From: Centroscyllium fabricii | Lineage: Eukaryota | Assembly: GCA_051313645.2 (NCBI GenBank) | Contig: JBNRSN020000002.1 | Location: 402,690,001 to 402,754,000, forward strand | Direction of reading: 5' to 3' | DNA: 64,000 nt | Shown: positions 31 to 53,750 of the stretch, one piece after another | How the letters are laid out: every line of letters begins with the position of its first letter | How positions within the stretch are numbered: the stretch's first letter is position 1 | The notes under the pieces: generated by a model | What the model was told of the DNA's origin: nothing | What the model saw: the letters and a program-made list of their open reading frames with translations, nothing else | Database searches by the model: none | Translations under genes and position numbers: made by a program

Positions 31-3000
31 ATGGTGAACCCAAGAAACCAAGCTCCACGAACGCAGGGAGCTGGACAGAACGCTGGACGTGGACTAACTC
101 TACCCGAGTTCTGGGAGCAACGGCCAGCGGCCTGGTTCATGTGCATTGAGACCAGCTGCCGCACACATGGCATCCAAGGGGACGACCGCTACGACCTGGT
201 GTTCTCAGCCCTACCACAGACGACGATTGATCGGATGTGGTCAAAAATACAGTGCATGCCCGTCGCAGGCAGGTATGAAACGCTAAAGGCCGCGCTTATC
301 AAAAAATTTACCCCCTCCCAATTCGAGCGCGACTGCCAGCTCCTCGACCTCCCCGAACTCGGAGACGCAGACCCATCGGACCTCTTAGGTCAGATGCAAG
401 CGCTCACACCCAACTCGGCCTCCCTCTTCCGCACCGTCTTCCTCCTTAAACTGCCCCGCGCCATCAGACCGGCCTTGGCGGCCCTTGGCCACCGGAGCGA
501 TGACGAGCTCGGAGAGGAGGCCGACAGGCTCATGGAGGCGCAGCGCACCCGCTCAACCACGTGCGACCCTAACTCCGCATCGGTAGAGCGCAGCCAATCA
601 CCCCCCAGGCATAACTTTACACCTGAACCTAGGGCCCCGCGCCCGCCTAGACAACCGCGTCCCTCTAGCACCGGCTGGTGCTACTACCACACGCGGTTCG
701 AACACAAAGCGCACCGCTGCGTCCAGCCATGCGCGTTCAAGCCACGGCCCAACTCAGCCCCCACCATGTCGGTAGGCCACACAGGAGCACTGCTCTTCGC
801 CACAGACAGCGGCACAGGCCTCAGGTTCCTCTGCGACACAGGCGCGCAGCACAGCATCGTGCCAGCCTCCCCTACAGAAACCAAACAAAGTACCCGGGGC
901 CCGCCACTAGTGGCAGCCAACGGCTCCAACATAAAAACGTACGGCACCTGCAAGCTAACTATAACCCTTGCAAGCCACGCGTACACCTGGGATTTTGTAA
1001 CGGCCCAGGTCACTTCACCCCACCTCGGGGCAGACTTACTCTGCGCCTAAGGCCTACTGGTCGATGTAACTCGGCGCCGCTTGGTAAATATAAATACCAT
1101 GACGACCATCCCATGCTCCACAGGGCCCGCACTCCTGGCCCACGCGGCAGCCCAATGCCGCTCCAGGGACTCCGATGCCTACGGCACACTCCTGGCAGAG
1201 TTCCCCGCCCTAACCAACCCCACGTTCACAGCCCGCAAGGCCAAACACGGGGTGGAACATTTTATAACTACCACAGGCCCGCCCGTCCATGCCCACGCCC
1301 GTAGGCTCGACCCGGCCAAGCAGGAGATCGCGCGCACCGAGTTCCGCACCATGGAGCAACTCGGTATAATCCGCCGCTCCTGCAGCCCCTGGTCCTCTCC
1401 GCTCCACATAGCCCCCAAGCCCGACGGAGGCTGGCGCCCCTGCGGCGACTACCGCCGCCTTAACAACGCCACCACCCCGGATAGGTACCCCGTACCCCAC
1501 ATCCAGGATTTTTCCGCCAGATTAGCGGGTTGTACGATCTTTTCTAAGATCGACCTGGTGCGTGGCTACCACCAGGTTCCGGTGCACCCGGCGGACATTC
1601 CTAAAACGGCCGTCATTTCCCCCTTCGGACTCTTCGAGTTCCTTAGGATGCCCTTCGGCCTTAAAAACGCGGCCCAGGCCTTCCAGCGCCTCATGGACTC
1701 AGTCCTACGGGAGTTGACGTTCATTTTCGTCTATTTAGACGACATCCTCGTGGCCAGCACCTCCCCCCAGGAACACCTCCTGCACCTCAGGACCCTGTTC
1801 CAACGCCTTACTGAACACGGCCTTATCTTAAGCCCCACTAAATGTAAATTCGGCCTCGAGACCATTGACTTCCTCGGCCACCGCATTTCCCAAACAGGGG
1901 CCATACCCCTGCCCTCTAAGGTGCAGGCGGTACAAGAATTCCCCCGCCCGCACTCCATTAAAGGGCTGCAGGAATTCTTAGGCATGGTTAATTTTTATAA
2001 CCGCTTTATCCCGGGAGCAGCTGCTCTCATGGCCCCCTTATACCAGGCCACCCGCGGGCAGTCCAATAAGGCTGCGGTCGAGTGGACGGCCGACGCCGAC
2101 ACCGCCTTCACCGCAACTAAAACCGCCCTGGCAAACGCCACCCTCCTAGCCCACCCTAGGCCCAACACCAGAGTAGCCCTCACCACCGACGCCTCCGACC
2201 ACGCGGTCGGGGCCGTATTTGAGCAGTGGACCGGCAACTCGTGGCAGCCCCTGGCCTTTTTCAGCCGGCAACTCCGACCCCCAGAGGTTAAATACAGCGC
2301 CTTTGATAGGGAGCTACTCGCTCTCCATCTGGCGGTGCGACATTTTCGTTTCCTCTTGGAGGGCCTCCACTTTACAGCCTTCAGCGACCACAAGCCACTC
2401 ACGTTTGCGATGGCTAAGGTCGCTGAACCCTGGTCGGCCAGGCAGCAGCGCCAACTCGTGGCCGTGTCGGAATTTACAACCGACATCCAGCACATTTCCG
2501 GCCGCGACAACGTGGTCGCTGACTGCCTCTCATGCCCCACCATTAACGCCACCCAAATGGCGGTCGATTACGCCCAGCTGGCCGCGGACCAGCTGGCCGA
2601 CCCCGACCTACTCAACGCAGCAACTAATCTCCCCGGCCTCCACCTGGCCAATATCGAGCACGGCCCCGCGGCCACCGTCGTCTGCTGCGACGTATCCTTA
2701 CCGCAACCCAGGCCAGTCGTGCCCCACGCTTGGAGGCAACATATATTTAGGACCCTCCATGACCTGTCCCACCCCGGCGCCCGCGCGTCCATTACGTTAA
2801 TATCGGCCCGATTCGTATGGCGCGGCCTGCGCAAGGACGTCCGCGCCTGGGCCAGCTCCTGCATAGCCTGCCAGCGCTCCAAAGTGCATAAGCACATCAG
2901 GGTACCGCTGGAAAATTTTAAAGTACCGGCCAGGCGTTTTGACCATGTCCACATCGATCTCGTCGGGCCACTACCGCCATCCCGGGGCCACACGCACCTA

Positions 3001-3858: not shown

Positions 3859-3900
3859 ACACTGTCACTATTCCTCCCGGACGGATTCTGGGGGGAGCTG

Positions 3901-4145: not shown

Positions 4146-6298
4146 CTACCCTCCGGAACGAACTTCTGTACAGGAATGAGGAGCCTCGGTCAGATCTCAC
4201 CTATAATGGTGCCTCACCTGGTGGAGGAGTTGGAGGTGTGGCTGACCTGGCTCCCAACAGTGTCACAGTATACAGGGCTGTGCCTAACATCTGCACAGCC
4301 CATTATTAGCCATAATAATAGAGTGGTAATGTTAACACAAAAGGGTTACCACATTCACCCCTTCTTGAACATTTTAAGTCCGGAGTGGGGTGCATGGGTC
4401 GAACAGTTCATGATAAGTCTGTCCGGCGGTCGTGTCTGCCTGGAGGACCGCCGGCGTTCCGGTGTTGGTGGTGGTGCCTCCTGGTTCGAATCGCCCGCAT
4501 CTGCCGGTGCTGTGGCTTCAGATGGCGATGGACTCGGCTGGTCCCCGCCGTCCGGGTCGTAGTTCAGTGCAGGCCACTGCAGGGGCCATCGTGTGTCTGG
4601 TGGTTGATCGGCCTGCTGGCCGGCCGGGGGCTCTGCAGTGGTGCTTCCTGCGGGAGCCAGGTCCCTGATGGACACGGTGTCCTCACGACCGTCCGGGAAC
4701 TGCACGAATGCATAGTGGGGGTTCGCGTGTAGGAGCTGTACCTTGTCCACCAGGGGGTCTGTCTTGTGGCTCCGGACATGCCTTCTAAGCAAAACCGGCC
4801 CCGGAGTCGTCAGCCATGGAGGAAGAGCTGTCCCCGAAGTCGACCTCCTGTTGAAAGAGAAAATCAAATCGTGCAGGGTGACGTTAGTAGCAGTACATAA
4901 TAGAGAGCGTATAGAGTGCAGCGCGTCTGGGAGGACTGCCTGCCAATGGGACACTGGAAGGCCTCTGGACTTGAGAGCCAAGGTGACCGCCTTCCAAATG
5001 ATCCCATTCTCCCTTTCTACCTGGCCGTTCCCCCGGGGGTTATAACTGGTCGTTCTGCTCGTGGCAACCCCTCTCTGGAGCAGAAACTGGCGCAGTTCAT
5101 CGCTCATGAACGATGACCCCCCGGTCGCTATGGATGTAGCTGGGGAGACCGAAGATGGCGAACAGCATGGTGAAGTGTTTGATCACCGTTGCGCTCGTCA
5201 TGTCTGTGCAGGGGAAGGCGAAGGGGAAGGCGTGGTGAAGTGGGCGAGTCTCGTGACACCCGGGTGGCAAAGGCGGTCGTGGAGGTCCTTCAGCCGGTCT
5301 AGCTGGGCACTGGCGCACGTTCCCCTGGACAGTGCGTCCGGGGGTTCATTGAGTTTACCTGGTCGGTAAAGAATGTCGTACTCGTAAGTCGAGAGTTCGA
5401 TCCGCCACTGCAGGATCTTATCATTCTTGATTTTACCCCGTTGTTTATTGTTAAACATAAACGCCACCGACCGTTGGTCGGTGAGCAGGGTAAAACGCTT
5501 ACCGGCCAGGTAATGACGCCAGTAGCGCACGGCCTCCACGATGGCCTGGGCCTCCTTTTCCACTGCTGAGTGGCGAGTTTCGGGTCCCTGTAGGGTGCGG
5601 GAGAAAAACGCTACGGGCCTGCCTGCCTGATTCAGGGTGGCAGCAAGGGCAAAGTCCGAAGCGTCGCTCTCCACCTGGAAAGGGATGGATTCATCAACAG
5701 CGAGCATGGTCGCCTTGATAATATCTTCCTTTATCGACCGGGGTCATCGTTGCATTTTTTCAATATTCGTACGGCCGCTGTGTAGGTTGAGGCGTTCCTG
5801 ATGAGGGTGAATACCCTGCTGGAGATCCTCGACCGTAGGACCTGCAACTTGTTCCTGTCCGATGTAGCCTTGGCGGCGTCCATGTAGGCCTCCAGGAGGC
5901 CGAACTAGTGTTCGTACGTGGTAGCAGCGGCAGGGTCCTGGGGACTGATGTCCAGCTTCTCAGGTTTAACTGCGCTGCTCTCCATTTAAAAATAATTAGC
6001 AATTAAAATTGACGTATCGTCAATACCTTCGATTAAAAGAGTCGACGAGTAGTTACCGAAACTAAAGGCTTTTAATTGCTAAGAACGGAGCTACCCTCCG
6101 GAACGAACTTCTGTACAGGAATGAGGAGCCTCGGTCAGATCTCACCTATAACGGGGCCTCACCTGGGGGAGGAGTTGGAGGTGTGGCTGACTTGGCTCCC
6201 AACAGTGTCACAGTATACAGGGCTGTGCCTAACATCTGCACAGCCCATTATTAGCCATAATAATACAGTGGTAATGTTAACACAAAAGGGTTACCACA
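4146..6298 (-). mobile_element. Gypsy family B copy 1 (B1), internally deleted; 3' LTR interrupted by element A1
   Basis: 5' LTR 6010-6298 (TGTGG...GTCA on minus), partial 3' LTR 4146-4353, PPT AAGAAGGGGTGAA. Integrase (4355-5230) and RNase H (5230-5735) remnants are joined directly to early gag at about 5736; PR and RT are deleted. Confidence 0.92.
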
Positions 6299-12064: not shown

Positions 12065-12076
12065 TGGTGACCCCGA
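12065..12076 (+). promoter_or_regulatory. Primer-binding site for tRNA-Trp
   Basis: TGGTGACCCCGA 1 nt after the 5' LTR, matching the first 12 nt of the tRNA-Trp PBS (TGGTGACCCCGACGTGAT). Confidence 0.85.
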
Positions 12077-12154
12077 ACTGGAACGACTTCCAGAGAAGAA
12101 AAGCTGCTGCAGGATCTGGGACCACCAGCCAAAGAACTTTTTAAATAAGAAAAC

Positions 12155-25162: not shown

Positions 25163-25701
25163 CCTTTATGTCCCTATTTTCTTACCGAAAAACAGGAGCA
25201 ACCAGAACCAATTTCTCCTCCATTGTGTCAACTGGTTATCTATTTAGGTCAGTTAGCAGTCCAGATGATGAACTCCAGTTTAAAAGGCTATTTGTCTATT
25301 TGTGACACAATCGAATGTCCATTTTGTGGTCTAGGATAATGATACCTTAATTGGTTTTCAATGAATTACATATTGGAATGATAAATAATTTAAAATTATA
25401 AATGTAGAGACTTTAATAATACATATCTGTAAGTGTAATCATACAATAAAAAAGGTTACAATTGAAAGATTAGAGAAACCACTTTTATTTCTATCTGAAA
25501 TTAGATTGTAAAACAATATATTTGTAACACAGCACGGATGTTGAAGGATTTTTCTTATGTAGCCAATCTTGTGAGTACAATTACCAGACAAAAATGTACC
25601 TCAGCAATGCTATGTTAAGTGCTCCATTCCAAAGAGGTTATTGTAGTTTAAATAAGTGCCCAAGAAGGTAACGGAAACCTAAGTGGACTGCATGTAACAA
25701 T

Positions 25702-32530: not shown

Positions 32531-34338
32531 AATGCTTCCCATACCGCTGGTGTATATCTCAGTTGAGGAATGGAGGTTGTGTGTGCTCAGACAAAGCAGC
32601 CAGAGGGTATTCCAAGCAGGTCACACTGCAGATGGATTGCAGCCTCAACACTCACAAGATCAGTAGAGCTGCAAAATGTCTCCCAAACCTGAAAGCACTA
32701 AGTTGTGGCAGGTGAAAGAATGAGAGATTGCAGGACCGCTTTTAAACTGCTCGAGCAGCTGGCAACAATTCAGGTCCTCGCTCAGCCCGGCTCGATACAC
32801 CTGCCATGTTTTTATGAAGACGGGTAGCATGGTCAAAATCCTCCAAAATCAGGTCAGGCCTTTAAAATAGGTTTATCCAGGCAGCTAACAAGCTTGTTAC
32901 TGTCTTAACAACCTGTCCTGCCGTTTGGTGTCGGGTCAGTTCAGGAGTGGCTGACCCGACACTTGCCAAAGTCACATGGAGGCAGGATTGAGGCGGATTC
33001 GCAGCCTGACGTATCGTCAATACCTCAGATTAAAAGTCGACGAGTAGTTACCGAAACTAAAGGCTTTTAATCGCTAAAGAACGGAGCTACCCTCCGGAAC
33101 GAACTTCTGTACAGGAATGAGGAGCCTCGGTCAGTTTCCACCTATAAAGGGGCCTCACCTGGGGGAGGAGTTAGAGGTGTGGCTGACCTGGCTCCCAACA
33201 GTATTACACAGTATACAGGGCTGTGCCTTACATCCGCACAGCCCATTATTGGTACAATAATAACAGTGGTAAACAACTATACAAGGGTTACCACATTCAC
33301 CTCTTCTTGAAAATTTTAATTCCGGGGGGGGGAGGTGAATGGGCCGAACAGTTCATGATCAGTCTGTCCGGCGGTCGTGTCTGCCTGGAGGACCGCCGGC
33401 GTTCCGGTGTTGGTGGTGGTGCCTCCTGGTTCGTACCACTTGCATCTGCCGGTGGTGACTGCTGATCGGGTGCCGTGGCTTCTGGTGGCGATGGATCCGG
33501 CTGGTCCCCGCCGTCCGGGTCGTAGTTCTGTACTGGGAAGCTCAGGGGCCATCGTGTGTCTGGTGGGTTTACTGGGTACTGCAGCTGAACGGCCTGCTGG
33601 CCGGCCAGGGGCTCTGCGGTGGTGCTTCCTGTGGGAGCCAGGTCCCTGATGGACACGGTGTCCTCACGCCCGTCCGGGAACTGCACGAATGCGTAGTGGG
33701 GGTTCGCGTGTAGGAGCTGTACCTTGTCCACCAGGGAGTCCGTCTTGTGGCTCCGGACATGTCTTCTAAGCCAAACCGGCCCCGGAGTCGTCAGCCATGG
33801 AGGAAGAGCTGTCCCCGAAGTCGATTTCCTAGGGAAGGAGAAAATCAGATCATGCGGGGTGGCGTTAGTAGCGGTACACAATAGAGAGCGTATAGAGTGC
33901 AGCGCGTCTGGGAGGACTGCCTGCCAATGGAACACTGGAAGGCCTCTGGACTTGAGAGCCAGGGTGACCGCCTTCCAAATGATCCCATTCTCCCTTTCTA
34001 CCTGGCCGTTCCCCCGGGGGTTATAACTGGTCGTTCTGCTCGTGGCAACCCCTTTCTGGAGCAGAAACTGGCGCAGTTCATCGCTCATGAACGATGACCC
34101 CCGGTCGCTATGGATGTAGCTGGGGAGACCGAAAATGGCGAACAGCGTGGTGAAGTGTTTTATCACCGTTGCGCTCGTCATATCTGCGCAGGGGAAGGCG
34201 AAGGGGAAGCAGGAGAACTCATCCACTACTGTGAGGAAGTATGAGTTGCGGTCGGTGGAAGGGAGGGGGCCTTTGAAGTCCACGCTGAGATGTTCAAAGG
34301 GGCGGGTGGCCTTAATGAGGTGCGCCGTGTCTGGCCGG

Positions 34339-37300
34339 TGTAACCTTCAATTACGTTCTCGGAGTCGAGTAGTAGATTAGAACAATCAGGCTTTTATTCA
34401 CTACAGTTAGATTACACACCAGCAAGCTGACTGTCCCCTGGAATGGCATGGGGGATGGGGGCAGTCACTTATATACCTCCTCCAGCGGGGGAGGAGTCGT
34501 GGGCGGAGCCGGGTATGTTCCAGGTATCAACTCACAGTGGAATACAGTACAGGTATAGGTTACATGGTGATACATGGTGATTAGCTATATACAGTGATAT
34601 ACACGTTTATCACATTCACCCCTTCTTTAAAACGAAAGTACAGCGGGGTGAAAAAGGCTAAAAATACAAAAAAGATATATTACAAACAGGGTTCTTATGA
34701 CTACAGGTTTAGTCTATCAGGCGGTTTCGTTGTCCGCGTTGATCTTCGCACCGCTGGTGGTGCCTGTGGTGTTCGTGGTCGTGGAGCGGCTGGTTGTGTC
34801 AGTTGCTCCATTGATGCCGGTCGACTAGTGGTGGTTGTTGTATTATTTCTGGGTGGCAGTGGTGCCCTTATTCTGACAGCAGGGGGCGCGTTCTTTCCTT
34901 CATCCTCTGACTCTAGGGGGCGCGCGTTGTGGATCCAAGCTTGGGGCCCGGTCGTGCTGCTCGCAGGTGCCTTGTGGACATACTGGGGTACTGGGCCCAC
35001 GTGTCGGGGCGCGTACTTCGGCTTCGGCGGCATGGGGAGCGTCACAGGACGTTTTGGGTGCGCGGCCTGCTGGGCGGGGCTTCTTTGGAGCTCGGGCTGC
35101 CTGGCGGGGCTGGGTTTTGGGACTCCTGCTGGGGCTAGGTCCTTTATGGACACGGTGTCCTCCCTCCCGTCGGGGAACGCTATGTAAGCGTACTGGAGAT
35201 TGGCGTGCAGGAGGTGGGCCCATTCGACTAGGGGGTCTGCCTTGTGTCCCCTCACATGCTTCCGAAGCAGGACCGGTCCCGGAGATAGTAGCCACGATGG
35301 TAGTGAGGTCCCGGAAGCTGACTTCCTGGGGAAGGCAAAAAGTCTTTTGTGAGGGGTGGCATTGGTGGCAGTACACAGGAGGGACCGGATAGAGTGCAGT
35401 GCTTCAGGGAGAACGTCCTGCCATCGGGTGACTGGGAGGCCTTTAGACCGTAGGGCTAACTGGATGGCTTTCCAGACCATGGCGTTCTCCCTCTCTACCT
35501 GTCCGTTCCCCCGGGGGTTGTAGCTGGTAGTCCTGCTAGTCACGATGCCTTTCGCTAGCAGGAACTGGCGCAGCTCGTCGCTCATAAAAGAGGCCCCCCG
35601 GTCACTATGTATATAGTTGGGGTACCCGAACAGGGAGAAGATGCTACTGAGAGCCTTGGTGACGGTGGCGGAGGTCATGTCCTGGCAGGGGATGGCGAAG
35701 GGGAAGCGGGAGTACTCGTCGATGATGTTGAGGAAGTACACATTCCTATTGGATGAGGGAAGGGGCCCTTTGAAATCGACACTGAGTCGTTCAAAGGGGC
35801 GAGTGGCCTTGATCAAGTGCGCCCGGTCTGGCCGGTAAAAGTGCGGCTTGTACTCCGCGCAGACCTGGCAGTTGCTGGTCATGGTCTTGACCCCCTCGAT
35901 AGAGTAGGGGAGGTTGCGGGACTTCACAAAGTGAACCAACCTGGTGACCCCCGGGTGGCAGAGGTCATTGTGAAGGGTTTGGAGACGGTCAGCCTGTGCG
36001 CTGGCACAGGTACCGCGGGATAGGGCGTCTGGGGGTTCGTTAAATATCCCGGGCCGGTACAAGATATCATAATTGAACGCTGATAGTTCAATTCTCCACC
36101 TCAATATCTTGTCGTTCTTGATTTTACCCCGTTCCTTGTTATTAAACATGAATGCGACTGATCGTTGGTCAGTCAGTAGGGTAAAACGTTTGCCGGCCAG
36201 GTAGTGCTTCCAGTGCCGCACTGCTTCAACAATGGCCTGGGCCTCCTTTTCAACTGAGGAATGGCGGGTTTCGGGGCCTTGGAGGGTACGTGAAAAGAAG
36301 GCCACGGGTCTGCCCGCCTGGTTAAGGGTGGCGGCCAGGGCAAAGTCCGATGCATCGCTCTCTACCTGAAATGGGACGGACTCATCCACAGCGTGCATCG
36401 TGGCTTTGGCAATATCGTTTTTAATTCTGCAGAATGCCGAGTTGGCTTCTGCAGAAAGTGGAAAAGAGGTCGATTTGAGTAGTGGGCGAGCTTTGTCCGC
36501 ATAATTGGGGACCCACTGGGCATAATACGCGAAAAATCCCAAACACCGTTTAAGGGCTTTGGGGGAGTGGGGGAGGGGAAGCTCCATGAGGGGGCGCATG
36601 CGGTCCGGGTCTGGACCGATGACTCCATTCTCCACCACGCTGCCGAGGATGGCCAGGCGGGTGGTGCTAAACACACATTTCTCCTTATTGTATGTTAAGC
36701 TCAGGGTTTTGGCCGTGTGGAGAAATTTTTGGAGGTTGGCGTTATGGTCCTGCTGATCATGGCCGCAGATGGTCACATTATCAAGATACGGGAAAGTGGC
36801 TCGCAGCCCGTACCGATCAACCATTTGGTCCATCTCCCTCTGGAAGACCGAGACCCCATTCGTGATGCCAAACGGAACCCTAAGGAAGTGGTAGAGGCGA
36901 CCGTCAGCCTCGAAGGCTGTATAAGGACGGTCCTCTGGGCGGATGGGGAGAATGGTGATAAGCCGATTTTAGGTCAATCGGTGAGTACACTTTAAACTGG
37001 GCGATTTGGTTCACCATGTCCGCTATCCGGGGGAGGGTGTAGGCATCTAGTTAGGTTTATGGTCTGGCTGTAGTCCACCACCATCCTATTCTTCTCCCCG
37101 GTTTTCACTACTACTACCTGCGCTCTCCAAGGGCTATTACTGGCCTCTATGACCCCCTCTTTTAGGAGGCGCTGCACCTCAGATTTTATAAATACCATGT
37201 CCCCAGCACTGTAGCGCCTACTTTTGGTGGCGATGGGCTTACAGTCTGGGGTGAGGTTGGCAAAGAGAGATGGAGGGGCAACCTTAAGGGTTGAGAGGCC

Positions 37301-38976
37301 ACAGGTAGTGTACTGGGGGTACCGCCTTGAGCCGCGGTTTCTGACCGTGAGTGAGGGAAGGGGTCCGCCGAATGCCATGGTAACGCTCTGGAGGTGGCAC
37401 AGAAAATCCAGTCCCAGGAGTAGGGGGGCGCAGAGCTGCGGCAGCACGTAAAAACTAAAGTCGGTAAACATTGCGCCCTGTACATTAAGCGTTACAATAC
37501 AGCGCCCGGTGACGTCAGCAGATTCTGACTTGGACGCCATCGATATTCTCTGGCGCGCAGGGATTACTCTAAGGGAGAGGCGCTTTACAGTATTTTGGTG
37601 AATAAAACTTACTGTGTTCCCACTGTCGAACAGGCACACCACCTCTTCCCCGTTGACTTCCACCGGCATCATTGATTTCTCCAGTGGTTGAATCTTCCTC
37701 TGGTCTAGGCTCATGGATGCTAACACCGGGTCCTCCGAGTTGTCTTGATCCGGAGAGTAGTCCTCCAAGTCTGCTCCCCAAGATGGCTGCCGCCATGTGT
37801 TGTGCTGTGGAGGCTGAGTCCAAGATGGCCGCTGTTGCTGCTGCTGCCACGAGGGCTGCTGAGTGGGGGATGGGTGAGCCCAATATGGCTGCTCCCCTGT
37901 TCCACACGCGGCGCTGCCCAGTTTGGATTTTGCGCCAGTGTTTTTACAGACCTTCGCATAATGTCCCTTCTTGTCGCATTTTGAACAGGTCGCTTCTCTA
38001 GCAGGGCAGCTGCATCTTGAGTGCTGAGGTTGTCCACAAAAGTAGCATTTAGCTTTAGCGTGGGCAGCTGTGAGTAATTCTTCTGCCGGTCGTTGTGCCA
38101 GCGCTGTCCAAGATTGTGGGGCTGGGCCCGTATAGTTACTTGAATATTAGGATAGGTCCATTGATGTGCTATCCAGCGCGTGCCCCAAGTCTGTAGTCGC
38201 CTGTAAGTCCTGGCCGTTCTGCTCCAGCAGTCTCTGCCTGGCATAGTCCGATTTTAGGCCTGTTACATAGGCGTCTCGGATGAGGCTCTCTACATGGACT
38301 TGAGCCGTTTGCGCTCTGCAGTCACAGTCCCGTGCCAGAATTCTGAGGGCTCTTAGGAACTGCACACTTGACTCGTTATTTTGTTGCTTCCTGGTGGCGA
38401 GTATATGTCTCGCGTGGACTATGTTTGGTGCCCGATTATATTCCATCTCGAGGATCCTGATGGCCTCTTGGAACGATGGGGCGTCCACTATCATCGAGTA
38501 CACTTGAGGGCCCACCCGGGCGTGGAGGAGTCGTCGTTTTTGCTCCTCGGTCACCATGACCGCCGCGTTGGATCTGATGTACCCTTCGAGCACGTTTCAC
38601 CAATGTGAGAAGGCGTTCGATGCTCCTGAAGATCGGGGATCAACTTCGAACACTGCTGGTTTAAGCATCGTGGTATCCATTTTACAGTAGTGAATAAAAT
38701 TGTAACCTTCAATTACGTTCTCGGAGTCGAGTAGTAGATTAGAACAATCAGGCTTTTATTCACTACAGTTAGATTACACACCAGCAAGCTGACTGTCCCC
38801 TGGAATGGCATGGGGAATGGGGGCAGTCACTTATATACCTCCTCCAGCGGGGGAGGAGTCGTGGGCGGAGCCGGGTATGTTCCAGGTATCATCTCACAGT
38901 GGAATACAGTACAGGTATAGGTTACATGGTGATACATGGTGATTAGCTATATACAGTGATATACACGTTTATCACA
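34339..38976 (-). mobile_element. Gypsy family D, full length, nested in the B2 integrase
   Basis: 276-bp LTRs 34339-34614 and 38701-38976, 5-bp TSD GCCGG, PPT AAAGAAGGGGTGAA. Confidence 0.96.
34701..38680 (-). pseudogene. gag-pol of element D (single reading frame, disrupted)
   Basis: ATG at 38680; zinc knuckles CYFCGQPQH...C..C.KKGH; PR DSG; RT YLDN; RNase H SDAS; integrase DFKGP...SDRG...VERE. Stops in gag and frameshifts near 36950-37055. Confidence 0.9.
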
Positions 38977-39816
38977 GCCGGAAAAAGTGGGGTTTGCACT
39001 CGGCGCAGACAGGGCACTCTCGGGTCATAGTCTTGATCTCCGTGATGGAGTAGGGGAGGCTACGGGACTTAATGAAGTGGGCGAGTCTGGTGACACCCGG
39101 GTGGCAAAGGCGGTCGTGGAGGTCCTTCAGCCGGTCGAGCTGGGCACTGGCGCACGTTCCCCTGGACAGTGCGTCCGGGGTTTCATTGAATTTACCTGGT
39201 CAGTAAAGAATGTCATACTCGTAAGTCGAGAGTTTGACCCGCCACCGCAGGATCTTATCATTCTTGATTTTACCCCGTTGTTTATTATTAAACATAAACG
39301 CCACCGACCGTTGGTCGGTGAGCAGGGTAAAACGCTTACCGGCCAGGTAATGACGCCAGTAGCGCACGGCCTCCACGATGGCCTGGGCCTCCTTTTCCAC
39401 TGCGGAGTGGCGAGTTTCGGGTCCCTGTAAGGTGCGGGAGAAGAACGCTATGGGCCTGCCTGCCTGATTCAGGGTGGCAGCAAGGGCGAAGTCCTAAGCG
39501 TCACACTCCACCTGGAAAGGGATGGATTCATCAACGGCGTGCATGGTCACCTTGATAATATCTTCCTTTATCCTTGCGAATGCCGTTTGGGCTTCTACAG
39601 AAAGGGGGAAGACGGCAGCCTTGAGGAGTGGTCTAGCCTTATCTGCGAACTGTGGGACCCATTGTGCATAATAGGAGAAAAATCCTAGGCATCTCCTCAA
39701 GGCTTTGGGGTTGTGAGGTAGGGGCAGTTCTTGCAGGGGTCGGATACGCTGTGGGTCGGGGCCGAGGACCCCGTTCTCCACCACGTATCCGAGGATGGCG
39801 AGCCGGTCTGTATTAA

Positions 39817-40180
39817 AGACCCGGGTTCAAATCCAGCCTCGGGTACTATCTGTGTGGAGTTTGCACATTCTCCCCGTGTCTGCGTGGGTTTCCTCCGGGT
39901 GCTCCGGTTTCCTCCCACAGTCCAAAGATGTGCGGGTTAGGTTGATTGGCCAGGATAAATTGACCCTTAGTGTTAGGGGGATTGAATATGTGGGGTTACG
40001 GGGATAGTGTGGGATATGTGTTGATGGAGGCTTGATAGGGATCGAGGGATATGGGGAGAGGGTAGGGGCGGAGTACTGGGTTTGGATGATCAGCCATGAT
40101 CTCATTGAATGGCGGAGCAGGCTCGAAGGGCCGAATGGCCTACTCCTGCTCCTAGTTTCTATGTTTCTATGTTTCTATGT
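39817..40180 (+). mobile_element. 5'-truncated HE1-like SINE inserted in the B2 RT
   Basis: V-domain and (TTTCTATG)n tail interrupt the RT between YNK and TDRLAILGY. Confidence 0.9.
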
Positions 40181-41283
40181 ATGCCCTTATTGTACGTAAG
40201 GTCCAGCTTGTCCGCCGTGGCGAGGAATTTGGCCAGATTGGCATTGTGGTCCTGCTGGTCGTGGCCGCAGATGGTCACGTTGTCCAGGTAAGGGAAAGTG
40301 GCCTGCAAGTCATTTTGGTCAACCATACGGTCCATCTCCCGGTGGAACACTGACACTCCGTTGGTCACGCCAATGGGGACCCAGAGGAAGTGGTAGAGCC
40401 GACCGTTCGCCTCGAAGGCGGTGTAGGGGCGGTCGGCTTCCCGGATCGGGAGCTGATGATATGCCGATTTAAGGTCGATCGTGGAGAACACCTTGTACTG
40501 GGCGATCTGATTGACCATTTCCGAGATGCGGGGAAGGGGGTAGGCGTCGAGCCCGGTGTAGCGGTTGATAGTCTGGCTGTAATCGATAACCAGCCGCTGT
40601 TTTTCGCCAGACTTCACCACTACAACTTGGGCGTGCCAGGGGCTGGTGCTGGCTTCAATTATCCCCTCCTTCAGCATCCGCCCGACCTCCGACCTGATAA
40701 ACGTGCGATCCCCCTCACTGTACCGCCGACTCTTAGTAGCAATGGGTTTGCACTTCGGATCGAGGTTGGCGAACAGCGAGGGGGGGTCGATTTTCAGGGT
40801 GGAGAGGCCGCAGGCCGGGCTCCGCTTTGGGAAGGGATTGTCCCGGCTACTGACGGTGAGGGGGGGCAAGGTCCCGCCGAACTCCATTGTCACGCTCTTG
40901 AGGTGGCACTGGAAATCCAAACCTAGTAAGGCTGGGGCACACAACTGCTGGAGGGTATACAATTTAATATTACGGTACACGCGCCCCTTGACGGTGAGCG
41001 TGACGGAGCAGTAGCCGGTGACGTCCGCGGTGTGGGACTGTGAAGCTAGGGAGACTTGGTAGTTAGTGGGCAGGACCTGCCGTCCGCAGCGCTGCACTGT
41101 ATCGGGGTGTACAAAACTCTCAGTGCTTCCTGTGTCAAAAAGGCAGTTAACAGTGTAGTCATTAATCAAAATTGGCATTATAGAGTTAGACAGGTATGTG
41201 GTCTGTCCTGGTTCACTCTGATTCTGGCTGCCGCAGCCGTGCGTTTCTGTGTGCATGGGGCCCCTGCTGGTCGTGGCTGTACA

Positions 41284-41600
41284 CAAGATGGCGGCGCCCC
41301 TGGCTCGCACATGGTGGGGCCCTGGATACAAGATGGCGGCGCCCCTGGCCCGCACATGGAGGGGCCCTGGATACAAGATGGCGGCGCCCCTGGCTCGCAC
41401 ATGGAGGGGCCCTGGATACAAAATGGCGTCGCCGGGGGGTCGCACATGGTGGTCCGCTGTGAGCGCGCTGGCGGCGCCCGTGATTCGCACACAGCGGACC
41501 GCGGTGATCGGGTTGGCGGTGCCCATGATTCGCACGCAGCGGGCCGCTGTGGTCGGGTTGGCGGTGCCCGTGATTCGCACGCAGCCGGCCGCGTTGGGGG
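41284..41600. repeat. 45-bp tandem repeat in the Gag-PR linker of B2
   Basis: About 4 well-conserved and 3 degenerate units; CAAGATGGCGGC at 41284, 41329 and 41374. Confidence 0.9.
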
Positions 41601-44189
41601 GTCGCGCTTGGCCGGCCTTTGCCGCATCGGGGTGGGAGATGGGGGCGCTTGTTGTCTACCCCCGGACCATCGCTGGATCGCGCTGCTGTTGCAGCTTACC
41701 TGGTGTCTGTCGGTGCTCTCACAGGCTGCACTGTTGTACCTTGGGTTAGGCGCTGCTGGAGCTGATCTGCAGGCTTTAGCGTAATGACCTTTCTTAGCGC
41801 ATCTCTCACAGGTCGCTGTCCTGGCTGGGCATTTCGCTCGTGGGTGCAGTCCCTGGCTGCAGAAGTAGCAGCGCTTATCTTTTGTGGCTGTCGCAGCCAT
41901 CGTGGGGGTCTCGGCCCGTTGTGGTGCTGCCTGGCCCTGTTGTGGCATGGCCCATATGTTGTAGGCTTGCGGGTTAGTGCCGCTGTATGCCTGTAACTTG
42001 CTTCGGGCCCCCTCTACTGATTTAGCTATCTTAGTCGCCTCCTCGAGGGATAGATTGTCTTTCTCAAGTAGCCGCTGGCGGGCTTCCACACACCTTAGTC
42101 CCGTAACGTAAGCGTCCCGAACGAGGAGTTCTGCCTCCTCTTCAGCTGTTATGGCTTTGCAGCCACAGACCCGTACCAGGGCCAGGAGCGCTTGCTCGAC
42201 TTGCTCATTCGACTCACCCGGTAGCTGAGATCTGGTCGCAAGCACATGTCGGGCGTAGACCGAATGGACCGGGCGCTCGTAGCATTTTCGTAGTTGTAGT
42301 ACGGCCGCTGCGTAGGTTGAGGCGTTCCTGATGAGGGAGAATACCCTGCTTGAGATCCTCGACCGGAGGACCTGCAATTTGTTCCTGTCCGATGTAGCCT
42401 TGGCGGCATCCATGTAGGCCTCCAGGAGGCCGAACCAGTGTTCGAACATGGTAGCAGCGGCAGGGTCCTGGGGACTGATGTCCAGCTTCTCAGGTTTAAC
42501 TGCGCTGCTTTCCATTAAAAAATATTTAGCGATTAAAATTGACGTATCGTCAATACCTCAGATTAAAAGAGTCGACGAGTAGTTACCGAAACTAAAGGCT
42601 TTTAATCGCTAAAGAACGGAGCTACCCTCCGGAACGAACTTCTGTACAGGAATGAGGAGCCTCGGTCAGTTTCCACCTATAAAGGGGCCTCACCTGGGGG
42701 AGGAGTTAGAGGTGTGGCTGACCTGGCTCCCAACAGTATTACACAGTATACAGGGCTGTGCCTTACATCCGCACAGCCCATTATTGGTACAATAATAACA
42801 GTGGTAAACAACTATACAAGGGTTACCACACAGCCCGCCCCCAATTTTTATGATTTTCGCAACAGACCCTCCTCCAAACCCACCCATTGAAGTCAATTAA
42901 ATTTGCAACCTCTGTGTTTATGGTCAGTTTAATGAGAAGATAGCTCAACAACCTAAATCATAAGGTTTCAAAGATTTGATGTGCAAAAGATTCCAACTAA
43001 CTTTCAGCTTCAATGTTCATTCATATAGCTCAGTCTAAAAACTACAAAAAAGATTTATGAAGAGATAAGGTTATACAGAAGAAAGTATGAATCAACAGAT
43101 TAAAAAACACTAACAATAGAGTTCTTGGGGGGAAAATTTGATTAGTTAGCGCCTCCCGTTAGCGTCTCCAGGAGGCGCTAACAGAGCGCTAACAACTTAC
43201 CACCCGAGCGTGGCTATTTTAGCACCGCCCGCGAAATTGACCTGACGGTTTGCGGTGGCATTAAACACTACCGCCACGATCTCCTGCGCCCAGAGATCAT
43301 GATGTCATCGAAGTGTGCATCGCCCCGGACTGGAAATTGATTCTTGCCCCCGCCTCAGCGCCTGCCACTAGGAACGTCAGGTAAAGGGGGATAGTTTGCA
43401 GTCAGCTGGGCGCTGGGGGAGCGCTATTTAAAGTCGTGCACTTCCTGCTTTTTCCTATTGGCAAAATATTCTGTATACGTAGGTTGAGAGAGGGAGAGAG
43501 GCGTCTGGAGACACTTAATGCTAGCCTACTTGAAGGAGTTTTGTTTGTCAGCAAGTCTTTTCAGGTTTCCATTTCTTTAAGCTTTATTACTAGCACATTT
43601 AGAAGTTTTAATGGGGGCTGTACTAGCATGGGGCCTCATCCTCCAGCTTCACTGTCGGAGGCAGCGGAGGCGGAGATAAGAGTGGAAAATATGAATAGAG
43701 GGAGTAGGGCCAACAGGGCTCTGCACAGGAGACCTTATCCTCCCAGGATATTACGGGAGCAATTCTCATATATCCATCTGTCTGAGGAGCAATGTTTTAG
43801 AAGGCTCCGCTTCAGCAAGGAGGTGGTCACAGAGCTTAATGTTGATTCTGCAAGGACCGTTCTTGAACACCTCATAAGACAGCGCTTTTGATCAATGGCT
43901 TTTGGGATCAGCAAGCACATCATTACAGCCATCCCGCAGCCCCTATTACCAGGCAAAGTTCCAATGAGTAACATGAGGAAATTTGTAATGTTTTAATAAT
44001 TTTTTAAATTTTTTCTGAACAACTGTGCAACCAATAACAAACAAACACAACAATTCATTAACAAACAAAATGGCTTCTTACCACATCGAAATAAGTCTTA
44101 ACAGAGTGAATAATATATTTACATACACATCCAACTTTGGTAAAACATTCCCCCCATTAGTTAGAAAAAAGTTGGTTATTCACCCTTCT

Positions 44190-46082: not shown

Positions 46083-48847
46083 GATAATCGTTGCAGGCCC
46101 AGATCAAATGCAGCAATGATCAGGGTGAGATGTGCAGCATGATGGACCCACCTGTTTAAGAACTGGAAGGCGCCAGTCTGTCTGAGTCCAAGGTAATTAA
46201 TATTGTGTGAGCTTGAGTAGTGCTCTGAGGTAGCGCCCCTGACGTATCGTCAATAAGACAAAGACGAGTAGTTACCTTAACTTTCGGCTTTTAATCACTT
46301 TAGAATGGAGCTAGCCTCCAGTTGAATATCGAGTACAGAATGAATGGGGGCAGGTCAGACCTCACCTATAAGGCTCTCACCTGAGGGGAGGAGTTAGAGG
46401 TGTGGCTGACCTGACCTCGCGACAGTGTCCTTATACAAAACTATATACAGTGCACCCAGCCACTATACATGCTGGTCTGTAGTGTAACTCAACTATATAC
46501 AATGGTAATCATGATTATCACATTCACCCCTTCTTTGAAAATTGAGTCTGGCGGAGTGAATGGACAGAACCGGTTAGTGCAAAAAAAAAATTTTGTATGA
46601 GTCCAGATCAACAGTTCTTGACGAGTCTCTCCGGCGGTTGTGACTGCCGTGAAGACCGCCGGGGTTCCGGTAGCGGCGCTGGTGCTGGTTGTGGCGGCGG
46701 GGCCGGGTCCTCCGGCAACTGTGCCTGCGGTGTGGCGTCTGGTTCTGGGTCCTCAGCTGGTAGTGTCGGGGGCCCCGGTGTGTGCGTGTGCATAGGCCAG
46801 TATCCGGTAGGTGGTGGTTGGTGTGTAGGCCAGTGGTCGGTAGGCGGTGGCTGGTCGGGCTGAGGCTCGACCAGGGGCTCTGTTGTAGTGCTCCCGGCGG
46901 GCGCTAGGTCCCTGATGGAAACTGTGTCCTCGCGCCCGTCCGGGAACTGCACGTAGGCGGACTGCGGGTTGGCGTGCAGCAGCTGCACCTTTTCCACCAG
47001 GGGGTCGGTCTTGTGGCCGCGGACATGTTTCCTAAGTAAGACCGGCCCCGGCATCATGAGCCACGGTGGGAGTGCCGTCCCCGAAGTCGACTTCCTGGGG
47101 AATGAAAATAATAAATCATGAGGTGTGGCGTTGGTAGCCGTACACAGCAGAGAGCGGATGGAGTGGAGCGCGTCTGGGAGGACTACCTGCCAACGGGACA
47201 CTGGAAGGCCTCTGGACTTCAGGGCCAGGCTGACCGCCTTCCAGATGATCCCGTTCTCCCTTTCTACCTGCCCGTTCCCCCGGGTGTTGTAACTGGTCGT
47301 TCTGCTTGAGGCAACCCCTTTCTGAAGCAGAAACTGACGCAGTTCGTCGCTCATGAACGACGACACCCGATCGCTATGGATGTAGCTGGGGAGACCGAAA
47401 ATGGCGAACAGCGTGGTGAAGTGTCTTATCACCGTTGCGCTCATCATATCTGGGCAGGGGAAGGCGAAGGGGAAGCGGGAGAACTCGTCCACGACCATGA
47501 GGAAGTACGAGTTGCGGTCGGTGGAGGGGAGGGGGCCTTTGAAGTCCACGCTTAGGCGTTCAAAGGGGCGGGTGGCCTTAATGAGGTGCGCCGTTTCTGG
47601 CCTGTAAAATTGGGGTTTGCACTCGGTGCAAACAGGGCACTCTCGGGTCATAGTCTTGATCTCCGTGATGGAGTAGGGGAGGCTACGGGATTTAACGAAA
47701 TGGGCAAGTCTGGTGATACCCGGGTGGCAGAGGCGATCGTGGAGTTCCTTCAGCCGGTCTAGCTGGGCACTGGCGCACGTTCACCTGGACAGTGCGTCCA
47801 GTGGTTCATTGAGCTTGCCTGGTCGGTAAAGAAATTCGTACTCGTAAGTCGAGAGCTCGATCCGCCACCGCAGGATCTTATCATTCTTGATTTTACCCTT
47901 TTGTTTATTGTTAAACATAAACGCGACCGACCGTTGGTCGGTGAGCAGGGTAAAACGCTTGCCTGCCAGGTAATGACGCCAGTAGCGCACGGCTTCACGA
48001 TGGCCTGGGCCTCCTTTTCCACTGCTGAGTGGCGAGTTTCAGGTCCCTGTAGGGTGCGGGAGAAAAATGCTATGGGCCTGCCTGCCTGATTCAGGGCGGC
48101 GGCAAGGGCAAAGTCCGAAGCGTCACTCTCCACCTGGAAAGGGATGGACTCATCAACGGCGTGCATGGTCGCCTTGATAATATCTTCCTTAATCACGGCG
48201 AACGCCTTTTGGGCTTCTACCGAGAGGGGGAAGACGTCAGCCTTGAGGAGCGGTCTGGCCTTATCCACGAACTGGGGAACCCATTGCGTGTAATAGGAGA
48301 AAAATCCCAGACATCTCCTCAGGGCTTTGGGGTTGTGAGGTAGGGGCAGTTCCTGTAAGGGACGCATACGCTGTGGGTCGGGGCCGAGGACCCCGTTTTC
48401 CACCACGTATCTGAGGATGGCGAGCCGATCTGTACAAAAGACGCACTTGTCTTTATTGTAAGTGAGGTCGAGCCGTTTCGCCGTGTGGAGGAATTTGGCC
48501 AGGTTGGCATCGTGGTCCTGCTGGTCATGGCCGCAGATGGTCACGTTGTCCAGGTAGGGGAAAGTGGCCTGCAACCCGTTCTGGTCAACCATGCGGTCCA
48601 TCTCCCTTTGGAATACCGACACTCCATTGGTCACGCCGAAGGGGACCTGGAGGAAGTGGTAGAGCCGACCGTTCGCCTCGAAGGCGGTGTACTGGCGGTC
48701 GGCTTTCAGGATCGGGAGTTGTTGATACGCCGACTTAAGGTCGATTGTTGAGAAAACCTTATACTGGGCGATCTGGTTAACCATGTCTGAGATGCGGGGA
48801 AGTGGGTAGGCGTCGAGCTCGGTGTAGCGGTTAATGGTCTGGCTGTA

Positions 48848-48940
48848 ATCATAGAATCATAGAATCATAGAAGATAGGAGCAGGAGTAGGCCATTCAGCC
48901 CTTCGAGCCTGCTCCGCCATTCAATGAGATCATGGCTGAT
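48848..48940 (-). mobile_element. Very short CR1/HE1 3'-tail insertion in the RT of C
   Basis: (CATAGAAT)n tail plus GGAGCAGGAGTAGGCCATTC, splitting the IDYSQ motif. Confidence 0.85.
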
Positions 48941-49637
48941 CGATCTCCATCTGCAGTTTCTCTCCAGTCTTAACCACTACGACCTGGGCCTGCCAGGGGC
49001 TGGTGCTGGCTTCAATTATCCCCTCCTGCAGCATACGCCCGACTTCCGACCTGATAAATGCCCGGTCCCCCGCACTGTAACGCCGACTCGTGGTAGCAAT
49101 GGGTTTGCAGTTGGGGTCGAGATTGGCGAAAAGTGAGGTGGGGGGTCGACTTTCAGTGTGGTTAGGCCACAAGTCGGACTCCGCTTTAGGAAGGGATTGT
49201 CCCGGCTACTGACGGCGAGGGGGGCCAGGGTCCCGCCGAACGTCATTGTCACCCTCTTCAGGTGGCACTGGAAATCCAGTCCCAGTAAGACTGGTGCGCA
49301 CAACTGCTGGAGGATGTACAGTTTAAAATTACGGTACACGCAGTCCCTGACCGTGAGCGTGACCGAGCAGTAGCCGGTGATGTCCGCCGTGTGGGACTTT
49401 GAAGCAAGGGAGATTTGGTAGTGCGTGGTAAGGGTCTGCAGTGCATAGCGCTGCATTGTGTCGGGGTGAATGAAGCTCTCTGTGCTTCCGGTGTCGAACA
49501 GGCAGTTGGTGATATGGCCATTAACTTTAATCCCCATCATGGAATTTGATAGGGTGTGCGGCCTAGCCTGGTCGACAGTGGCTGAGGCCGAAGTGTGTGT
49601 GTGTGTGTGGGGGTCCTCCGCTAGCTGGGGCCGTGCA

Positions 49638-49985
49638 CAAGATGGCGGCGCCCGTGGTTCGCACGCGGCCGACCGCGGTGGACAAGATGGCGGTGCCGGG
49701 GGTCGCACATGGCTGGCCGTTGAAGACAAGATGGCGGCGCCGGGGAGTCGCACATGGCTGGCCGTTGAAGACAAGATGGCGGCGCCGGGGAGTCGCACAT
49801 GGCTGGCCGCTGAAGACAAGATGGCGGCGCCGGGGAGTCGCACATGGCTGGCCGCTGAAGACAAGATGGCGGCGCCTGTGATTCGCACGCGGCGGGCCAC
49901 GGTGGATGCGATGACGGTGCCCGTGGTTCGCACGCGGTGGACCGCGGTGGCCGAGTTGGTGGCGCCCGTGATTTGCACGCAGCAG
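49638..49985. repeat. 45-bp tandem repeat in the Gag-PR linker of C
   Basis: Six CAAGATGGCGG sites at 49638, 49683, 49727, 49772, 49817 and 49862, plus degenerate units. Confidence 0.9.
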
Positions 49986-51306
49986 GCCGCGCTGGGCGAG
50001 GTGCCGGCGTTGGTGGGTCGCCCATGGCCGGCCGCGGCCGTCGTTGGCGTGGCGGTGCCCGTGCCGTGTGCGCGGCCGGCCTCTGCCGTATAGGGGTGGG
50101 AGACGGGGGCGCTTGTAATCTGCCCCCGGACCGCTGCTGGGTCGCGCTGCAACAGCAGCTTACCTTAGGCCGTGGGATGACGTTGGAGCTCTCGCAAGCC
50201 GCGCTGTTGTGTCTGGAGCTGGGCGCTGGGGACGATTTGCAGGCCCTGGCGTAGTGTCCCTTTTTGCCACATCTCTCACAGGTCGCGGTCCTCGCGGGGC
50301 ATTTCGCTCGCGGATGCAGTCCCTGGCCGCAGAAGTAACATTTTCTGTCCGACGGCGTCTTCGCTGCTGCCGCTGCCATTGTAAGGTTCTCGACCTGTCG
50401 TGGGGCCGCCCAGGAATCGAGGGTGTCGTGTGGGCCTTGGCCGCTATACGCCTCTAGCCTGCGGCGTGCTCCATCCACTGCGTTAGAGATGGAGATCGCC
50501 TCCTCCAGTGATAAAGTCTCTTTTTCCAGCAACCGCTGGCGGGCCTGGCTGGACCTGATTACCGTCACGTAGGCGTCTTGAATGAGGAGATTCATCTCCT
50601 CCTGCGCCGTTCGTGGCTGGCAGTCACAGGCCCGGGTGAGGGCTTGAAGCGCCAACAGATACTGTTCGTTCGACTCACCGAGCTGTTGTTGTCTGGTTGC
50701 CAGCACGTGTCTGGCATAGACCGAGTGGACCGGGTGCACGTAGCATGCCTTCAGTTTCTCCACGGCCTCTACGTACGTTGTGGCGCTGCGGATGAAGGAG
50801 TACACCTGGCTGGTGATCCTGGACGAGAGAACGTGTAATTTGTTCCCGTCGGTCGTCGCCTTGGCGGCCGCCATGCATGCCTCAACAAGGATGAACCAAT
50901 GTTCAAATGTGTTGGCGGCGTCTGGTTCCTGTGGATTAATATCCAGCTTTTCGGGTTTCACAGCGCCGCTCTCCATTTCAAAAATTTAAAGTGATTAAAA
51001 TTGACGTATCGTCAATAAGACAAAGACGAGTAGTTACCTTAACTATAGGCTTTTAATCACTTTAGAATGGAGCTAGCCTCCAGTCGAATATCGAGTACAG
51101 AATGAATGGGGGCAGGTCAGACCTCACCTATAAGGCTCTCACCTGAGGTGAGGAGTTAGAGGTGTGGCTGACCTGACCTCGCGACAGTGTCCTTATACAA
51201 AACTATATACATTGCACCCAGCCACTATACATGCTGGTCTGTAGTGTAACTCAACGATATACAATGGTAATCATGATTACCACAGCCCCGTTCCCTGACG
51301 TTCCCT

Positions 51307-51702: not shown

Positions 51703-52854
51703 TAGTGCCCTCAGAGAAGCGTGTAGCGCTTCATTTAGCACTCCAATCATCTCCAGGGCGCTGGAGATGAATTTTGCGGTCGTTGGTGATAATTTCAATT
51801 CAATTCAATTCAATTCAATTCAAGTTTTATTGTCATTGCAGAGTACTAGTACAATACAACGAGACGAAGACTCGACTCTCCCGAGAGTAGTGCAAACAAA
51901 ATAAATAAATTACATGCAAATTGCATACAGTAAAGTTCATTGTCAGGCGTGCAGGTACCGGGCGCTAAATTTTGTGCCCAGTTGATAGTAGCGCCCCAAA
52001 ATGGTCAATCCTGAATTTTCCCCCCTTGATTTTTACTGTTATTTGTAAACTGATTTTCCCAAACTAGAACAACAAAGATCAGTTGCAATGGTTTTTGTGT
52101 AAGCACATGCCGCTGCCCTCACGGAATCCTGCCCCACGACAGCACCTGGATATGAGACCGAACTGTATGAAAGGAACTCAAGAATTAGGGCAGGCATGCT
52201 ATATTTATCCCCAGATTCTGACAGCTTCTAGCTACAGAACTGTCAATCAAGTATCAGAACAAAGATACAATGACAGAAATGGCTCCCATATGGTGTTGAT
52301 TGCTAGTAGCACCCTGCATCTGTTTTAACCAGAGGATGCTGATTGTGATACAATGTGCATCTGGCTAGCTTTTTGAGAAACAAAGCTTCCTTTGATGGTC
52401 TGTCTTCAGGGTTAATAGCATTGTGTCTTGCAGTAGCAACATTGCATAAGCCTAAGGTATCTGGTTAATCAATCTGAACCTGATCAGGGACTGTTTATAG
52501 ACAAAGGTGTAAACAAGAGGCAGCAGACTCCGTTGCACTTCAAAATCAAACCCAGACAGTTTGTGAATCTTTCTTTCACAAAGACAACAGAAACCTACAC
52601 AGAAAGCAATTACAGAAGCCATTTTAAAATAGCAATCACAGCCATAAATTCCTATAAAAAAGTATATAATAAAGATTCATATGATGTGAAACAGGACAGA
52701 TTAGGGTCATCATAGTGTATTACGTGAGAAGGAACACTTTACATTTCATGTATCAGACATTTTAAGGTTAAGTGCGGTTTGGCTAGATGCAAAATGTAGC
52801 TCCCTCTGCTCTGCCCTGACATTGTGACTCATTCCCAACTTTCAACAGACTCCA

Positions 52855-53750
52855 GTTCCAGGCTGCCCCGACGTACCTCGGGGTCAAGCTTGACCGCACG
52901 CTGACGTTTCGCCAACACCTGGAAAACTTGTCCGCCAAGACATCGGCCCGCGTCGCCCTAATACGCCGCCTAGCTGGTACCACCTGGGGTGCCTCGACCA
53001 AGACACTGCGCATCTCCACCCAGGCATTGGTCTTCTCCGCCGCCGAGTACTGCTCCCCAGTCTGGTGCAGGAGCTCCCACACCAAGAAGCTGGACACAAC
53101 GCTCAACACCGCCTTACGCACAGTCTCTGGCTGCCTGCGCGCCACGCCGGTCAACCAACTACCGATACTCGCCGGCATCGCACCACCAACCCTGCGCCGT
53201 GAAGCAGCTGTCCTTGCACTGTCCCGAAAAGCCACCAACGATGAGGACCACCTTCTCCACAAGTTCGTCACAGAGATCCCTCCACGAGCTCGCCTGAAGT
53301 CACGACGCCCATTCGCGGAGCACGCCCACCAGCTCCTGCATTCAACACCCGGTGATGTCACAAAACGAACCTGGCTCAAACGCCGCTGGACGAAGGAATG
53401 GCAGGCAGCAGATCAATCAAGGCTGCACAGATTTGTGGAGGAGCCGGATGAACTACTGGGCATGGACCTCCCTCGCCGGCAGTGGACAATGCTCAACCGC
53501 CTCAGGACTGGTGTCGGCCGTTTCGCCGCGACCATGAAAGGATGGGGACTCAGGGACTCGGCTGTCTGCGACTGTGGTCACCCTGAACAGACAGTCGATC
53601 ACATCATCGAGTCATGTCTAAAACATCGACCACCCAACGGCGAAGCCGGCATAGCTGCTCTAGACGACGAAACGCTAGCATGGCTTTCCTCAACCGAGCT
53701 GGTGATCTGACAACGGGATACTGAAGCAAACGAAAGAAAGAAAGAAAGAA
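52855..53750 (+). mobile_element. 5'-truncated non-LTR retrotransposon, probably Ingi/Vingi-like, with open C-terminal ORF ending at 53710
   Basis: YLGVKLDRTLTF, WGAS..TLR, AEYCSPVW, LNRLRTG, C.CG...QT..H....C zinc finger, (GAAA)n tail, ACTCCA on both flanks. Confidence 0.75.

Follow-up and report, generated by a model that had tools for sequence, protein, structure and literature searches.

The window, meaning the whole 64,000-nucleotide stretch of the Centroscyllium fabricii genome analysed here, contains four related long terminal repeat (LTR) retrotransposons on its minus strand. In three of these the reverse transcriptase (RT) motif C reads YLDN, and an unrelated family, here termed A, has the usual YLDD. 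The elements and their RT features are as follows:

33007..42830, minus strand, element B2, with LTRs at 42540-42830 and 33007-33295 and target duplication GGCTG
34339..38976, minus strand, element D (4.6 kb), nested in the B2 integrase, with LTRs at 38701-38976 and 34339-34614 and target duplication CCGGC
46240..51284, minus strand, element C, with LTRs at 51002-51284 and 46240-46522 and target duplication GGGGC
4146..6298, minus strand, element B1, an internally deleted relative of B2 in which the RT palm is gone and pieces of RNase H and integrase are left
40279..40290, minus strand, RT motif C YLDN of B2 (TAC CTG GAC AAC)
48545..48556, minus strand, RT motif C YLDN of C (TAC CTG GAC AAC)
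36777..36788, minus strand, RT motif C YLDN of D (TAT CTT GAT AAT)
40459..40485, minus strand, RT motif A with the first catalytic Asp (STIDLKSAY), B2
48725-48751, minus strand, the same STIDLKSAY motif A in C
39821..40185, no strand assigned, dispersed repeat of ~365 bp inserted into the RT of B2 shortly past its YLDN
1732..1743, plus strand, RT motif YLDD of family A for comparison (TAT TTA GAC GAC), with a second copy at 13857-13868

Elements B2, C and D are bounded by TG...CA LTR pairs and 5-bp target duplications, and alignment of the LTR pairs (289/289 aligned bases plus a 2-nt gap in B2, 276/283 in C and 274/276 in D) confirmed the near-identity claimed in the first-pass annotation. The paired LTRs, target duplications, polypurine tract and order of gag, protease, RT, RNase H and integrase are those of Ty3/Gypsy elements, with Pfam matches to protease, RVT_1, RNase H and rve in Gypsy order and an RT closest to that of Ty3. 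The canonical D...YxDD triad is absent, the third Asp being replaced by Asn and the other two being retained. Re-reading of the letters bore out YLDN in all three elements and YLDD in family A. The RTs of B2 and C share 88 % DNA identity and those of C and D 74 %, and Asn occurs in 11/11 rows of the starred subtree containing the genomic query. The three elements thus inherited Asn a single time and do not represent separate origins of the motif. All three copies are now broken, as the RT of B2 is split by the dispersed repeat and its integrase by element D, while both C and D carry frameshifts, that of D near 36950-37055 crossing the RT motif A stretch. It is copies elsewhere in the genome, and not these three, that speak for activity with Asn.

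Several other features occur in the window. The gag-protease intervals of B2 (41188-41667) and C (49631-50065) contain 45-bp tandem repeats, and in both copies the reading frame differs on either side of the region. Family A, which is presumably CsRN1-like by its motifs, is present in two plus-strand copies (1-4146 and about 11800-16270) that are 94 % identical and have YLDD, a TGG-type primer site and an RNase H motif FSDHK. In the second copy the motif A Asp is replaced by Asn (KINLVRGY, 13671-13694), and this copy is on that account probably dead. LINE-like RT C-terminal fragments without a Pfam match lie at 24320-25165 (minus strand) and 52820-53710 (plus strand), and are presumably, again by their motifs, CR1-like and RTE-like or of another non-LTR type. 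A near-perfect (98.8 %) direct duplication of 930 bp with internal repeats of ~158 bp spans 18311-20333, and no tRNA gene is found in the 64-kb window.

The third catalytic aspartate, i.e. the second Asp of YxDD, is near-invariant among RTs. Its replacement by Asn has been made in two yeast elements. The Ty1 D211N enzyme retains polymerase activity with kpol cut 223-fold and does not transpose, while second-site changes in RNase H restore transposition to 5-10 % (PMC2148107); similarly, Ty3 D214N retains polymerase activity with lower processivity and does not transpose (PMC5371799). The first-pass annotation had cited the Ty1 case correctly according to the first of these reports, and the Ty3 case in the second is alike. 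The residue and the change are the same as those found here, but the yeast mutants are dead for transposition in vivo, whereas the Asn of the shark elements is natural and has been amplified to about 185,000 matches.

Before function is considered, Asn might be regarded as an artefact of assembly or of post-insertion mutation, whether by G-to-A hypermutation or by decay of the CpG that is contained in GAC GAC and yields GAC AAC. The GAT AAT of family D lacks this CpG and could not be made by such decay. Furthermore, Asn is found in 99.9 % of the genomic matches, most of which retain an intact CpG at the adjacent AAC|GTG, and it is shared with sharks, rays, corals and a jellyfish. The counts refute the artefact, the likelihood of which we consider negligible.

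These counts were obtained by scanning exact patterns of the form FPYLD-x-VTICG across the 7.2-Gb genome. The YLDN pattern gave 184,619 matches (at least this number of RT motifs, or about one per 39 kb) versus 228 for YLDD. Control A-to-G neighbours in the same pattern were more frequent than YLDD (YLDS, 328; YLGN, 655), so that Asp copies stand at or below the level expected from post-insertion mutation. A looser YxDD pattern, in which other flanking residues were allowed, gave 317 matches and thus only 89 extra. The first 30 YLDD loci out of the 228 were inspected: in 29 a stop lies no more than about 500 codons from the motif, several families are represented, and the best pairwise identity is 97 %. 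Asn is fixed in the families of this genome. Large families are found with AAC as well as with AAT, which means that the codon has changed silently while Asn was kept; this suggests that Asp is disfavoured in this background. Where annotation rules score YxDN as a dead RT, an element group that is among the most abundant in the genome would be overlooked.

An Asn-to-Asp restoration after transcription could reconcile these counts with an Asp enzyme, since AAY to GAY is a single A-to-G change of the type produced by A-to-I RNA editing, and protein deamidation would have the same outcome. Edited genomic RNA would, however, be copied into YLDD insertions, and the position of YLDD below background argues against this. 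Asn before Val or Ile deamidates slowly, which counts against the protein route. Restoration by either path is hardly credible.

A second way of sparing the Asn enzyme any work would be a dead or crippled RT in elements that are mobilised in trans by a YxDD helper. The failure of Ty1 D211N and Ty3 D214N to transpose is in keeping with this, as is the existence of the 228 YLDD copies and of the YLDD family A in the same window. Family A, however, shares about 30 % identity and differs in its primer site, and the YLDD copies are rarer than the neutral controls, scattered and mostly broken. The young YLDD copies that might serve as helpers, raised in the first-pass annotation as evidence against its reading, did not appear: no Asp helper family is visible genome-wide with either the exact or the loose YxDD pattern.

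The long-frame copies and the pattern of substitution also bear on the helper explanation. Twenty family D copies, chosen for long frames among 150 matches to an Asn-bearing query, have YLDN in 20/20 cases and LTR identities of 95.3-100 % (two at 100 %), and 17 of the 20 retain all ten catalytic motifs checked. The dN and dS values over 140 RT codons, taken as the median of pairs, were 0.003 and 0.042 within family D, 0.019 and 0.309 within family C (4/12 loci having been dropped because of stops, shifts or low identity), and 0.093 and about 2.5, the latter saturated, between the 20 D and 8 C copies. These values indicate strong purifying selection on the RT with Asn in place. Among 99 aligned rows with Asn, conservation is complete (99/99) for both the motif A Asp and the first Asp of motif C, and reaches 97/99 for the motif D Lys, 99 for each of the RNase H D/E/D residues and 98 for the last RNase H Asp. 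A passenger RT would not hold dN/dS near 0.04-0.07, nor would it keep both other aspartates in every one of the 99 rows, and mobilisation in trans is thus very improbable. The first-pass view that the lineage was transposing while it carried Asn gains genome-wide support from copy number, LTR identity and dN/dS, and that of a naturally evolved variant active site from the counts, long-frame copies and selection. An Asn-form RT that is active with the two remaining Asp residues and serves its own element is, on this comparative evidence, very probably the correct explanation.

The trait extends well beyond this shark, an extent that was missed in the first-pass annotation, as was its repeated switching. 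Among the best 120 of 1,225 homologues, 97 have YxDN and 23 YxDD, the nearest named homologues being those of sharks and rays (73-85 % identity). Named carriers of Asn include Scyliorhinus, Hypanus, Mobula, Narcine and Actinostola and, through cluster membership, Acropora, Porites, Pocillopora and Sanderia, and those of Asp include Trichuris, Apostichopus, Ischnura and Cydia; the clade ranges over sharks, rays, corals, nematodes and insects. The best 150 from a search over 50 %-identity representatives were added, and 266 of the resulting 268 proteins, those with a sufficient RT core, were scored. At 40 % identity or more, 139 have Asn, 72 Asp and three another residue, while below 40 % identity 52/52 have Asp. 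Clade members P0013 and P0045 are deposited as Rhizobiales bacterium and bacterium, respectively, and the P0045 cluster contains jellyfish proteins; both are likely animal contamination of metagenome bins. A single, unrelated YLDD locus was found in IMG/VR.

In a FastTree phylogeny of 148 ingroup rows, built with the trait column removed, 14 changes of state are required (shuffled mean 41.8, minimum 33) and the base is mostly Asp. An IQ-TREE phylogeny of 44 rows, hand-picked for mixed Asp and Asn states, requires 13 changes, of which the starred branches force at least ten, and the Asn rows form a single clade in 0/200 bootstrap trees. In the 90 % clusters, 87/87 motif-holding members (153 members listed) match the state of their representative; the state being fixed within these clusters, the position toggles between families rather than between copies. 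Sister Asn and Asp enzymes, such as P0061 and P0082, have end branches of about 0.08 and 0.11. The YLDN/YxDN trait marks an animal-wide Ty3/Gypsy clade in which Asp and Asn have been switched at least ten times.

Two CCHC knuckles in frame and the lack of Pfam matches to a GPY/F module, chromodomain or env liken the elements, by markers alone, to the Cigr-1 clade. The latter is defined by two knuckles, integrase after RNase H and no GPY/F, chromodomain or env (PMC2774666; PMC6238403), and has its founder in Ciona intestinalis with further members in molluscs (PMC2774666). This marker set is not diagnostic alone, the same being listed for part of the Osvaldo clade in PMC2774666. In searches of the self-priming and Cigr literature, nothing was found on the motif or primer of this clade. 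The double knuckle may also resemble that of the Mag lineage, for which a tRNA-type primer site would be expected; a TGG primer site is absent from the clade elements. Membership of the BEL/Pao superfamily was rejected, given two knuckles rather than three, a Gypsy-type RNase H and a D-D(35)-E-type rve.

No TGG primer site occurs in the B2-type elements. The sequence behind the 5' LTR is instead complementary to an arm within the LTR itself:

42525..42538, minus strand, B2 primer-site element one base past the 5' LTR, a perfect complement of the LTR arm at 42600-42613
42600..42613, minus strand, B2 LTR arm with a poly(A)-signal-like ATTAAA, putative self-primer
50987-51000, minus strand, C primer site, pairing with the LTR arm at 51051-51064
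38687-38699, minus strand, D primer site, pairing with the LTR arm at 38754-38766
5996-6008, minus strand, B1 primer site, pairing with the LTR arm at 6070-6082

The arm ends in A(A/T)TAAAA, 49-61 nt before the LTR end, and its partner is 13-14 nt long. A narrow pattern for the primer site alone has 67,774 genome matches. Across 34 elements (30 genomic loci found through the primer site pattern alone and the four window elements), a self-complementary stem of at least 13 bp is present in 30. Among the distinct arm and site pairs 19/20 pair at 13/13 positions, with compensatory changes at six positions and a non-cognate mean of 10.4. Minimum-energy folds favour the 13-14 bp stem (z -1.6 to -3.0). 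A short hairpin across the LTR end (ATTGACG/CGTCAAT), considered as another structure, is absent from these folds. The primer for minus-strand synthesis is probably the element's own RNA, in Asp as well as in Asn members, with the LTR arm of 13-14 nt annealed immediately downstream of the 5' LTR. As the pairing partner exists only behind the 5' LTR, the 5' poly(A) signal might in addition be masked by the pairing. A similar arrangement is known from the self-primed chromoviruses Tf1 and Tj1, whose primer site is complementary to their own LTR instead of a tRNA (PMC4600332), and the clade elements share this complementarity, with covariation. They differ in that the Tf1/Tj1 primer is the RNA 5' end, whereas in the clade elements the poly(A)-signal-like hexamer lies within the arm, and in having no chromodomain match.

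The first-pass annotation had proposed that Asn is linked to this priming mode. An adaptation of the active site to self-priming would fit the self-complementary primer site of all Asn elements examined in the genome, and Asn is found only inside the clade with this site. The co-occurrence of the two traits was followed in 80 metagenome loci; in 39 of these, several of them near-copies, the motif could be scored and the upstream DNA was long enough. The stem is present in 10/27 Asn and 5/12 Asp loci (shuffles at most 0.002 on average). The YxDD members thus carry the same primer site, the traits do not co-vary, and the support for the proposed link is removed. Asn as an adaptation to self-priming is therefore improbable, although the priming mode may have had a permissive role.

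In the preferred reading, the elements are Ty3/Gypsy members of an animal-wide clade in which the third catalytic residue of the RT is either Asp or Asn, and enzymes with Asn most likely polymerise with the two remaining aspartates well enough for their own transposition. By analogy with the Ty1 and Ty3 mutants, two Asp residues would bind the metals, with the Asn supporting the site via hydrogen bonding. Since the change cuts kpol 223-fold in Ty1 and both yeast mutants are dead, compensation would be needed in the clade, and, more tentatively, something clade-wide may have made the third Asp dispensable before the first switch. The RNase H motif offers one candidate:

39308..39322, minus strand, RNase H LTDQR of B2, in which Gln takes the place of the usual His next to the third catalytic acid
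36162-36176 (D), 47931-47945 (C) and 5471-5485 (B1), minus strand, RNase H LTDQR of the other elements

The xDQ motif is found in 161/161 clade rows of at least 40 % identity and in 0/42 rows outside (below 40 %), 39 of which have His, and Ty3 likewise has His where the clade has Gln. The Gln is common to Asp and Asn members; it is one event on one branch, so that the correlation has n = 1. The mapping of the Ty1 D211N suppressors to RNase H makes this His-to-Gln change the best candidate for a permissive change, a role that we nevertheless consider doubtful. Like the Ty1 suppressors, the change would adjust RNase H to suit a slower polymerase. Further residues are clade-wide in both states, namely W-R-A-Q for W-x-S-P, a one-residue insertion in YSQTIN, GVTNGV for GLxNAP and K-N-x-K before the RNase H helix. 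Residues such as WRAQ, YSQTIN and KNDK fit a permissive role equally well as the RNase H Gln.

Column by column, the raw association with Asp or Asn is strong (best p 1.6e-17) but follows the tree. In a kinship-corrected pair test, which was underpowered with only nine independent pairs, none of seven among the 25 best-associated columns was significant. A TDH-reversion pattern gave 319 matches, a figure that is uninformative without the count of its TDQ counterpart. Structurally, an AlphaFold model (pLDDT 89.2) has an ordinary RT-RNase H fold and matches Ty3 RT 4ol8 (E 1e-31), which is also the closest solved structure by sequence (E 2e-50); the ESM Atlas, searched with a homologue, returned generic RT clusters only. 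It can be speculated that an ancient RNase H His-to-Gln change, perhaps connected with the cleavage of an RNA self-primer, released the third Asp from constraint, with at least ten later flips between Asp and Asn and an Asn that is now locked in cartilaginous fish, which would make these elements a natural and massively successful counterpart of the Ty1 genotype combining D211N with an RNase H suppressor. As a whole this history is unlikely to be right. If true, the 'invariant' Asp would serve to balance the speed of the polymerase against that of RNase H, and would not be a matter of chemistry.

Natural Asn at the second Asp has been published for nematode BEL/Pao elements, a precedent absent from the first-pass annotation. 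YVDN is reported in Cer7-Cer12 of Caenorhabditis elegans, with activity that 'remains to be determined' (PMC554778), and in Atlas and its relatives from Ancylostoma ceylanicum (bioRxiv 2021.11.23.469668), in both cases in intact-looking elements. BEL/Pao being another superfamily, the origin of Asn there is independent of that in the Gypsy clade. What these reports give is the motif, apparently without copy counts, selection or Asp/Asn switching. No natural YxDN in Gypsy elements was found in print, in a search that covered subscription journals thinly and lay outside Repbase and GyDB, and nothing on the YLDN motif was found in PMC3601003 and PMC3670739. Despite this precedent in BEL/Pao, an old question becomes open to direct test through the large copy number, an Asp count lower than background, the repeated changes of state and the naturally occurring pairs of enzymes.

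The role of the second Asp has so far been argued from laboratory mutants that are unable to transpose, and whether natural Asn enzymes are functional was a question that the 2005 Sinbad paper did not settle. The present clade provides population-scale evidence that they are, and its natural Asp and Asn sister enzymes can show both the role of this residue and what compensates for its loss.
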